Below the pieces are notes generated by a model that was not told where the DNA came from, did no database searches, and saw only the letters and a list, made by a program, of their open reading frames with translations. A stretch of DNA of 517 nt from Escherichia coli (GTDB lineage Bacteria; Pseudomonadota; Gammaproteobacteria; Enterobacterales; Enterobacteriaceae): NCBI RefSeq assembly GCF_003334335.1, contig NZ_QOWQ01000177.1. One strand, given 5' to 3'. Below, piece by piece: positions 1-517 of this stretch. Each line of letters begins with the position of its first letter. Position 1 is the stretch's first letter. Made by a program: the position numbers and the translations under genes.

Positions 1-93
1 ATGCTGGTTGGCTCCCGCCGTATATCCCAGGACATCAGTACCCGTGATGAAGGCGGGGGCGGAAAGGTCGTGGTTATCGGGCGGCAGGGGTAA
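1..93 (+). CDS. I: Tail (tip) assembly protein I, C-terminal end; 5'-truncated by the window edge
   Basis: Frame +1 from position 1 reads MLVGSRRISQDISTRDEGGGGKVVVIGRQG followed by TAA at 91-93. This closely resembles the C-terminus of phage lambda gpI as I recall it (...GSRVVSQEISTADEGDGGQVVVIGR). Its position directly upstream of J matches lambdoid tail-gene order. The ATG at 1-3 is most likely an internal Met codon, not the start. GC content is about 63% by hand count, typical of the coding flanks. Confidence 0.8.
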   Translation: MLVGSRRISQDISTRDEGGGGKVVVIGRQG

Positions 94-139
94 AAAGAAT
101 AAAAAAATCCCGCAGTGATCGCGGACAGGAACTGCGGGA
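94..139 (-). terminator. Predicted intrinsic (rho-independent) terminator for a leftward transcript
   Basis: Perfect 9-bp inverted repeat: TCCCGCAGT at 108-116 pairs with ACTGCGGGA at 131-139, with a 14-nt loop (117-130). On the minus strand the stem is followed immediately by UUUUUUUAUUCUUUUU (complement of the A-run at 92-107). On the + strand no U-tract follows the stem (GAGAGTTACG), so it is oriented for the minus strand. The loop is larger than in typical terminators, which lowers confidence. Confidence 0.5.
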
Positions 140-198
140 GAGTTACGAAGATTAAGTGTAAGGAATTATTCTTATGTCACGACAAAAAAAATTAACGC
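100..198 (-). ncRNA. Candidate small non-coding RNA of about 100 nt (promoter-to-terminator unit without an ORF)
   Basis: The interval between the predicted start (about 198) and the end of the terminator U-tract (about 100) has no ATG-initiated ORF on the minus strand; the only coding-like string is GTG ACA TAA. The predicted transcript is 5'-GCGUUAAUUUUUUUUGUCGUGACAUAAGAAUAAUUCCUUACACUUAAUCUUCGUAACUC-[hairpin]-UUUUUUUAUUCUUUU. It has a U-rich 5' region and a terminator hairpin with U-tail, the usual layout of Hfq-type small RNAs. The boundaries are predictions. Confidence 0.3.
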
Positions 199-204
199 AG
201 CGAA

Positions 205-232
205 ATTATACGCGCCACAGTCAGTTTGTGAA
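205..232 (-). promoter_or_regulatory. Predicted sigma70 promoter on the minus strand (leftward)
   Basis: Read on the minus strand: -35 TTCACA (complement of 227-232, 5/6 match to TTGACA), a 16-bp spacer, then -10 TATAAT (complement of 205-210, 6/6). The predicted start is a G about 7 nt downstream, near + coordinate 198. It lies in the AT-rich spacer and fires away from J toward the terminator at 94-139. Confidence 0.4.
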
Positions 233-256
233 AATGTGAAGATATTCAGAATTTTT
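231..256. promoter_or_regulatory. CRP-like palindromic site (TGTGA-N6-TCAGA) with AT-rich flanks
   Basis: AAAATGTGAagatatTCAGAATTTTT compared with the CRP consensus AAATGTGAtctagaTCACATTT: the core at 235-250 matches 9 of 10 half-site positions, and the AAA/TTT flanks are present. The centre (about 242.5) lies roughly 44 bp upstream of the predicted minus-strand start, overlapping or just upstream of the -35. A second TGTGA at 227-231 gives a tandem TGTGAAAATGTGAA. Confidence 0.3.
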
Positions 257-272
257 ATTCAGTCATGATACA

Positions 273-300
273 GGCATCCTCCGGGGTGCCTGTTGTTTTT
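273..300 (+). terminator. Terminator-like GC hairpin with U-rich tail on the + strand, 36 nt upstream of the J start
   Basis: GGCATCC at 273-279 pairs with GGGTGCC at 284-290, giving 7 bp including one G-U pair, with a 4-nt loop TCCG. It is followed by TGTTGTTTTT at 291-300. An AU-rich stretch (AAUUUUUAUU, 250-259) precedes the hairpin. The A-run would precede the stem on the minus strand, so the orientation is +. It could be an attenuator or stability element of the late transcript, or the 3' end of a + strand small RNA. Confidence 0.35.
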
Positions 301-322
301 GTGAGTGAACAATTATCACGGT

Positions 323-330
323 AAGAGGTG
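323..330 (+). promoter_or_regulatory. Ribosome-binding site (Shine-Dalgarno) of J
   Basis: AAGAGGTG at 323-330 is complementary to the 16S 3' end, with a 5-nt spacer (ATGTA) before the ATG at 336. The ATG at 331-333 is followed immediately by TAA, so it is not a productive start. Confidence 0.6.
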
Positions 331-335
331 ATGTA

Positions 336-517
336 ATGGGCAAAGGCGGCGGCAGGGCGCACACACCGCGCGAGGCGAAGGATAATCTCAAATCCACGCA
401 GATGATGAGTGTGATTGATGCGATTGGTGAGGGACCGATAGAAGGTCCGGTGAAGGGACTGCAGAGTATCCTGGTGAACAAAACCCCGCTGACGGACACG
501 GACGGTAATCCCGTGAT
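336..517 (+). CDS. J: Host specificity protein J / central tail fibre (tip attachment protein J), N-terminal 60 codons; 3'-truncated by the window edge
   Basis: ATG at 336-338 opens a frame that stays open to the window end: MGKGGGRAHTPREAKDNLKSTQMMSVIDAIGEGPIEGPVKGLQSILVNKTPLTDTDGNPV. It matches the lambda gpJ N-terminus as I recall it (MGKGSSKGHTPREAKDNLKSTQLLSVIDAISEGPIEGPVDGLKSVLLNSTPVLDTEGN) at most positions. A strong Shine-Dalgarno sequence lies 5 nt upstream. GC content is about 62% by hand count. Confidence 0.9.
   Translation, partial: MGKGGGRAHTPREAKDNLKSTQMMSVIDAIGEGPIEGPVKGLQSILVNKTPLTDTDGNPV

Follow-up and report, generated by a model that had tools for sequence, protein, structure and literature searches.

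A terminator-like hairpin just upstream of tail gene J in a lambda-like Escherichia coli prophage shares its spacer with a homologue of the small RNA PasB

It is established lambda biology that Q-modified polymerase reads through terminators on lambdoid late operons, and that in lysogens the transcripts starting at pR' stop at tR' (PMC7547250). The hairpin considered here, found on the late-operon strand just before the tail gene J of an Escherichia coli prophage, resembles the tR'/6S RNA/StxS module in having the make-up of a late-strand intrinsic terminator that would work on polymerase lacking the modification and give way to Q. It differs, however, in its location, which is not beside pR' or a Q-utilisation site but ~20 kb into the operon, and in that no short RNA product is known from it. 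The intergenic spacer in which it lies is also that of PasB, an 83-nt RNA that loses stability when Hfq is missing and is found widely across E. coli (Pearl Mizrahi et al. 2021, PMC8550237; Zhu, Shabalina and Storz 2026 preprint), but the hairpin lies on the other strand and beyond the limits of the mapped 83-nt RNA, 5' of the PasB promoter, and PasB is also found without this hairpin in the type B and sodC spacer architectures described below. The stretch of DNA that carries pasB can be compared to a moron, i.e. a self-contained unit that brings along its promoter and terminator (Cumby et al. 2012, PMC3594210; Juhala/Hendrix concept). Relative to lambda, the pasB cassette is inserted between two tail genes, has a GC content of 39% against 57-61%, possesses a promoter and a terminator of its own and is expressed from the prophage; as extra DNA with these properties it qualifies as a moron. 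It departs from other lambdoid morons in its cargo, which is a non-coding sRNA antisense to the operon, and the hairpin is not the moron's own terminator but a second, opposite-facing candidate at the other edge. Finally, lambda itself has a hairpin between I and J, with which the present one shares a GC-rich stem, a UNCG-type tetraloop (UCCG here, UGCG in lambda and UCCG in PhiR63_1), a U-rich tail on the late-operon strand and a position just 5' of the J ribosome-binding site. The two have no sequence homology, however, and the one studied here is set apart from I by an inserted 170-nt sRNA cassette. Neither is annotated (the lambda record has no annotation on its I-J hairpin), no experimental characterisation of either was found in the literature, and a search for publications on a terminator or stem-loop between lambda I and J found no relevant description.

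The window, which is the whole 517-nt stretch of DNA that was analysed (GCF_003334335.1, contig NZ_QOWQ01000177.1, with the late-operon strand as plus), is the I-J junction of the lambdoid tail operon of a lambda-like E. coli prophage (Table 1). It is 99.6% identical to Escherichia phage PhiR5_1, in which tail tip assembly protein I and J are annotated, while many Stx-converting phages are ~90% identical. The 60 translated residues of J matched J proteins in 482 phage records (tblastn). The gap between I and J is 242 nt in the window versus 60 nt in lambda, and its GC content is 39% versus 61% (I) and 57% (J) in the flanking coding parts; the spacer is an AT-rich insertion relative to lambda. 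Around the J start, an inverted repeat on the plus strand, AUCAC (314-318)/GUGAU (327-331), could fold the Shine-Dalgarno sequence into a small hairpin, which is present (314-333) in the long-context fold; the spacer downstream of the terminator-like hairpin varies among variants. Further down, antisense within the J coding region (485-502, minus strand), there is a weak terminator-like match with five pairs and an 8-nt loop, which is probably due to chance.

Table 1. Features of the window (positions from its first letter) and of the region before J in other phages
Feature	Position	Strand	Evidence
Tail assembly gene I, 3' end	1..93, stop TAA 91-93	+	ORF; PhiR5_1 annotation
PasB homologue	101..198; U-tail 107..101, terminator stem-loop 139..108	-	Probe match, alignment, fold, terminator scan
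Predicted sigma-70 promoter of PasB homologue	205..232: TTCACA, 16-nt spacer, TATAAT	-	11/12 consensus
Conserved AT-rich block 5' of PasB promoter	229..259	.	80 IMG/VR loci; nearly invariant alignment columns
Hairpin	270..293: 10-bp stem 270-279/284-293, UCCG tetraloop 280-283	+	Terminator scan, RNA folding, 19-variant comparison
U-rich tail UGUUGUUUUUGUG	294..306	+	Read from sequence; 9 U/13
J translation initiation region	320..338; Shine-Dalgarno AAGAGGUGA 322-330, ATG 336	+	Sequence; J start annotated equivalently in PhiR5_1, E2348/69
Tail tip/host specificity gene J, 5' part	336..517	+	tblastn, phage annotations
Lambda: AAACCGCC-UGCG-GGCGGUUUUGUCAUUU	NC_001416 about 15466-15495, C(UGCG)G tetraloop, end 20-27 nt before J ATG	Late-operon strand	
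PhiR63_1: stem same as lambda's, UCCG loop	Just before J		
Serratia phage Ulliraptor: GCCCC-UGUCCU-GGGGCUUUUUUU	Just before J		
mEp043: GGUGC-UUCG-GCAC(U)7	U tract runs directly into J ATG		
MagusPhagus, SPN3UB, mEp044, Erwinia phage Midgardsormr38: no element	I-J gap 8-14 nt		

The initial annotation had pointed to a terminator-like hairpin with a U-rich tail on the plus strand at 250-303, preceded by an AU-rich stretch and lying immediately before the J ribosome-binding site. The sequence is as described, and both RNA folding and the terminator scan agree with it. The letters given for the stem, GGCAUCC-UCCG-GGGUGCC, were correct but its length was not, the real stem being three pairs longer: ACAGGCAUCC (270-279) pairs with GGGUGCCUGU (284-293) through 10 bp that include six G-C and one U.G and lead into a C(UCCG)G tetraloop. 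The 20 nt 5' of it (250-269) are indeed AU-rich, and the placement holds roughly, with the end of the stem ~28 nt 5' of the Shine-Dalgarno sequence and 42 nt 5' of the J ATG. The tail starts with UGUUGUUUUU, i.e. with 6 U in the first 8 nt and 8 U in the first 10, and its tail score is 3.87. As its U tract is broken by G at positions 2 and 5, termination efficiency could be modest. A folding energy too weak for a stable hairpin would have spoken against the proposal. The segment 250-303, however, folds at -19.1 kcal/mol (MFE; the centroid, which consists of the hairpin only, has -18.7 kcal/mol) against -9.0 +/- 2.4 kcal/mol for 200 dinucleotide shuffles, a z-score of -4.27 with none of the shuffles folding as well, and in a 252-nt plus-strand context the hairpin is kept in both the MFE and the centroid structures.

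A terminator consensus scan recovered the hairpin as a plus-strand terminator-like site, with three sites in total in the window versus 0.4 expected. When the scan was extended to the 20-kb late operon of PhiR5_1, the hairpin came second in the list and had the most stem pairs (10) of any plus-strand site. Other strong plus-strand intergenic terminator-like hairpins of this operon are directly 3' of the head genes D and E and of J, the last one before lom (10751-10772, 11837-11857 and 23826-23845). On a d'Aubenton-Carafa-type score, the hairpin obtained +27 and the hairpin after J +45; the former is above the +1 of the PasB terminator, which demonstrably ends an RNA. The minus-strand version of the hairpin reaches -13.2 kcal/mol only; the U.G pairing of the plus strand turns into a C.A mismatch there, and it has no U tract, on which grounds a role as a minus-strand terminator was rejected. 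The hairpin is a good terminator candidate on the plus strand only, which is that of the late operon, and it combines a stable GC-rich stem-loop, an adjoining U-rich tract and strand specificity, as intrinsic terminators do. The view that an intrinsic terminator-like element sits within the late tail operon is thus borne out by the sequence and by the comparison presented below.

The other strand of the spacer had gone unnoticed in the initial annotation. What had been viewed as the 3'UTR of I is not one in the usual sense but an inserted AT-rich cassette, the minus strand of which specifies an sRNA homologous to the published, Hfq-dependent PasB and equipped with a predicted promoter and a terminator. 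The EPEC Northern probe for PasB, AATCCCGCAGTGATCGCGGAGCT (PMC8550237, Table S6), matches window positions 105-127 at 20 of 23 positions, the first 20 being identical. In E2348/69, PasB lies at NC_011601.1 1466343..1466261 (minus strand), between E2348C_1436 (I) and E2348C_1437 (J), which maps by homology to 183..101 (minus strand) of the window, and the E2348/69 spacer aligns with the window over its whole length, hairpin included. The 5' end of the homologue would be at ~183 if it corresponds to the one that coverage indicates in E2348/69, and at ~198 if the start is 7 nt past the predicted -10. The terminator scan found a minus-strand match at 125..109 within the PasB terminator, and no promoter-like match in the 20-kb PhiR5_1 late operon is better than the PasB promoter. 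Nothing is annotated in this region (101-232, minus strand) in RefSeq or GenBank records. An Rfam 15 scan of the window gave no match at the gathering threshold, the best being MicX at 21 bits versus 75, i.e. sub-threshold noise; this empty result is explained by the absence of PasB from Rfam 15. Since the PasB homologue is on the minus strand, plus-strand RNA running from I to the hairpin would be antisense to it.

The hairpin is not part of PasB, as it is outside the transcript, on the opposite strand and 38-61 nt upstream of the PasB -35 element. The two terminators at the edges of the spacer, PasB's and the candidate studied here, face outwards, the former toward I and the latter toward J. 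Two further candidate roles for the cassette were discarded: base pairing in trans between PasB and the region where J translation starts, which gives a duplex energy no more favourable than shuffled targets do, and a small ORF (174-239, 21 aa) as the cargo ended by the hairpin, the ATG and frame of which are lost in E2348/69.

Could the hairpin instead be the 3' module of a separate short plus-strand RNA ending at ~300, be it an Hfq-binding sRNA or a transcript that diverges from PasB at its AT-rich promoter region? A hairpin with a U tail is the usual 3' end of an sRNA, and the hairpin and the PasB terminator bracket the spacer. The idea that it is a small-RNA 3' module, which had been raised from the start, nevertheless found no convincing plus-strand promoter to go with it. 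None is above the scan threshold in the spacer, and the best matches, TTGTGA-15 nt-CAGAAT (226-252) and ACGACA-19 nt-AATTAT (179-209), agree with 8/12 consensus positions each. There is no match to an Rfam family, and no plus-strand entry for the E2348C_1436/1437 spacer among the EPEC RIL-seq entries listed. Hfq-CRAC data from O157 Sakai, in which the prophages Sp11, Sp14 and Sp15 carry the same I-J spacer, might at first sight appear to be more favourable. EcOnc22/23/24, known from Hfq-CRAC (Tree et al. 2014), are candidate sRNAs of about 85 nt that depend on Hfq and run antisense to the tail operon, and their published coordinates, taken at face value, cover the hairpin on the minus strand. 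These coordinates refer to NC_002695.1, however, and AgvB1 is displaced by ~+140 nt in NC_002695.2, a calibration available at 1.94 Mb only. Such a shift puts the peaks on the body and strand of PasB and not on the hairpin, and EcOnc22-24 were rejected as evidence for an RNA over the hairpin. EcOnc22/23/24 are likely to be PasB homologues, a conclusion that rests on a shift calibrated at one other locus; this equivalence is not mentioned in PMC8550237 or in the Zhu, Shabalina and Storz 2026 preprint. HnrS (EcOnc10-12) was also considered, but it adjoins the Rz lysis gene and not the I-J spacer. Nor is there anything behind the suggestion that the G/U-rich tail resembles an sRNA seed region: the anti-sRNAs AgvB and AsxR, which this suggestion brought to mind, are both in Rfam and gave no match, and AgvB1 lies elsewhere in Sakai. 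Altogether, a separate plus-strand RNA ending at the hairpin appears improbable.

Conservation was assessed in IMG/VR on 80 loci retrieved via the J N-terminus and 120 retrieved via a flank-anchored pattern that left the stem unconstrained. Almost all plus-strand occurrences of the hairpin (133/137) are directly downstream of the PasB cassette, as recognized by its terminator motif, and 41-57 nt before J. Over the 19 distinct variants, 98.4% of cells are paired, and pairing falls to 33-50% when the 3' arm is slid by one to three columns. Pair 277:286 covaries (C-G in 10 variants, U-A in seven and U.G in two), pairs 270:293 and 278:285 vary through G.U only, and the loop is the most variable part of the hairpin (UCCG, UCAG, GGUG). 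Six of the 10 pairs are invariant across these 19 closely related variants, in which the flanks are also ~88% conserved. One covarying pair in such closely related sequences lends some support to maintained pairing without being decisive. The tail core TGTTGTTTT is present in every variant, though it is partly fixed by the search pattern. The 40-55 nt between the hairpin and the J start exist in at least four mutually unalignable versions, all of which keep the hairpin and tail; as seen from these alignments, the hairpin is retained through at least four replacements of the downstream spacer. A near-identical copy of the hairpin is found in at least 542 of 5,426 complete E. coli genomes, and no RefSeq feature is annotated over the hairpin itself among the matches listed, one partial match overlapping a tail-protein CDS.

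These data also bear on the notion that the hairpin is a relic without current function, whether it was left behind as the terminator of a previous cassette or arose by chance and travels with a highly conserved spacer. The conservation of the stem alone is weak evidence when the whole spacer is ~88% conserved in close relatives, and some architectures do without the hairpin. Such a relic is nonetheless hard to reconcile with the shuffling result, with the persistence of the element across replacements of the adjacent downstream spacer, with the compensatory pair and the concentration of changes in the loop, and with the recurrence of analogous elements elsewhere. We regard it as very unlikely.

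The spacer comes in other architectures as well. Type B (45 of the first 80 loci) retains PasB with the promoter block as far as ~259, where homology between the two main spacer architectures ends in the 80 IMG/VR loci, and then has a different, longer stretch before J. This contains a bidirectional, terminator-like hairpin of 12-13 bp, AACCCCGGUAUC-UGCU-GAUACCGGGGUU, ~104 nt before J (locus L025, about 1000-1120), which could end a further small transcript on either strand; an Rfam scan of the type B spacer found no family match. In type C (13 loci; L003, 380-1100), the PasB body is kept and is separated from J by a minus-strand sodC, which has a hairpin of its own and replaces both the PasB promoter and the plus-strand hairpin. 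The encoded protein is a Cu,Zn superoxide dismutase (NCBIfam, 218 bits versus a cutoff of 165). No plus-strand terminator-like site was found between I and J in type C, the nearest being 357 nt upstream of the J ATG. In these sodC loci, PasB would be made only by readthrough from sodC, if at all. In one more locus (L192, about 10250-10540), ahead of the usual hairpin and J, two copies of the block GCCGGAAATGTGAAGAATTTCAGAAATTTT flank a second minus-strand unit, made of a hairpin and a U tract and unrelated to the first. This tandem arrangement, in which an Rfam scan found nothing, suggests that sRNA-like cassettes may be interchangeable behind an upstream block that they have in common. Evidently, insertions are frequent at the I-J junction, which is a hotspot for them.

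The architectures help to weigh an explanation at the DNA level, in which the inverted repeat would be either a palindromic regulator site for the PasB promoter, with its centre ~84 bp 5' of the predicted start, or a boundary at which mosaic modules recombine. A palindrome of 10 bp, nearly perfect and placed ahead of a promoter, is compatible with an operator, the symmetric change from C-G to T-A fits a dimeric operator as well as an RNA stem, and the homology between spacer architectures breaks ~10 nt to the left of the repeat. Type B, however, keeps PasB and its promoter block with a different hairpin, so that the promoter can do without this repeat. A U tract on one side only, a loop of UNCG type and asymmetries that are G.U and not A.C point to a plus-strand RNA, and phages that lack PasB have unrelated terminator-like hairpins in this place. 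A function in DNA is, in our view, very unlikely.

The hairpin is most simply seen as a Rho-independent terminator, which would stop non-antiterminated rightward transcription before J in the lysogen and be read through by Q-modified polymerase during lytic growth. We hold this to be somewhat better than an even bet, and the attenuation or arrest of readthrough from I into J without Q, proposed in the initial annotation, is the best-supported reading of the hairpin on present sequence comparisons. In this model, a polymerase without the Q modification would transcribe rightward from I, through leakage along the operon, or start weakly in the AT-rich spacer. Formation of the 10-bp GC-rich hairpin would make it pause on the U-rich tract and release the RNA at about 297-302, i.e. 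before J, so that J and the genes beyond would be silent in the lysogen. With the PasB terminator facing the opposite direction at the left edge, transcription started in the cassette would be confined to the spacer both ways, in keeping with the moron concept. In lytic growth, Q-modified polymerase coming from pR' would read through and the hairpin would merely be part of the late mRNA. Termination, its override by Q and insulation in the lysogen as the selected function are what we infer from anatomy and position. As the hairpin is downstream of pasB and cannot shield it from rightward transcription, the benefit of insulating J in the lysogen is an assumption. In any event, the hairpin is an element of an ordinary kind that had not previously been annotated.

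The main rival is another role in RNA, that of a stability or processing element of the late transcript. The hairpin would block 3'-to-5' exonucleases after endonucleolytic cleavage, or mark a processing site, so that the upstream and J messages differ in half-life, and pairing with PasB across 101-198 could supply RNase III cleavage. This is in line with the maintenance of the hairpin in the long plus-strand fold, with the strong hairpins that follow the highly expressed D and E in the same operon and those that precede J in unrelated phages, and with the fact that the late transcript is necessarily and perfectly antisense to PasB just upstream. It would hold even with the terminator-resistant polymerase made by Q. 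An exonuclease barrier needs no conserved U tract, however, yet the tract is kept in every variant, and the upstream genes M, L, K and I do not encode high-abundance products with an obvious benefit. We consider stabilization or processing to be unlikely, while granting it a real chance.

Terminator-like hairpins before J are not confined to the family of the window. The hairpin-plus-U-tract elements found before J in lambda, PhiR63_1, Ulliraptor, mEp043 and type B (Table 1) are non-homologous to the window hairpin. Such an element is not a universal feature before J, as four of the eight more distant phages sampled have nothing but a short I-J gap. Terminator-like hairpins thus recur just before J, built from unrelated sequences, without being present everywhere. 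A more ambitious interpretation, which we find quite doubtful, is that lambda-like tail operons, that of lambda included, have repeatedly and independently acquired hairpin-plus-U-tract units before J as a control element, which sets J expression apart from that of the upstream tail-assembly genes. In phages with PasB, it could work together with this antisense RNA: PasB made from a resident prophage would pair with the I-J spacer of the late mRNA, whether this comes from the same prophage or from a relative that superinfects or is induced, leading to cleavage by which J synthesis would be uncoupled or reduced, the hairpin being the end of the surviving fragment.

If termination takes place as predicted, the hairpin would be one more internal terminator that silences prophage tail genes and that Q antitermination has to override, a reading that is useful for annotation and not surprising. 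The more informative result is the context, namely the identification of the spacer as a pasB locus and the analogous uncharacterised hairpins before J in unrelated phages. The hairpin flags the I-J spacer of many E. coli prophages as an unannotated sRNA locus, that of PasB, and raises the question of whether PasB acts in cis on the late transcript. Its counterparts at the same spot in unrelated phages, lambda included, raise the broader question of whether J expression is deliberately uncoupled from the rest of the tail operon.
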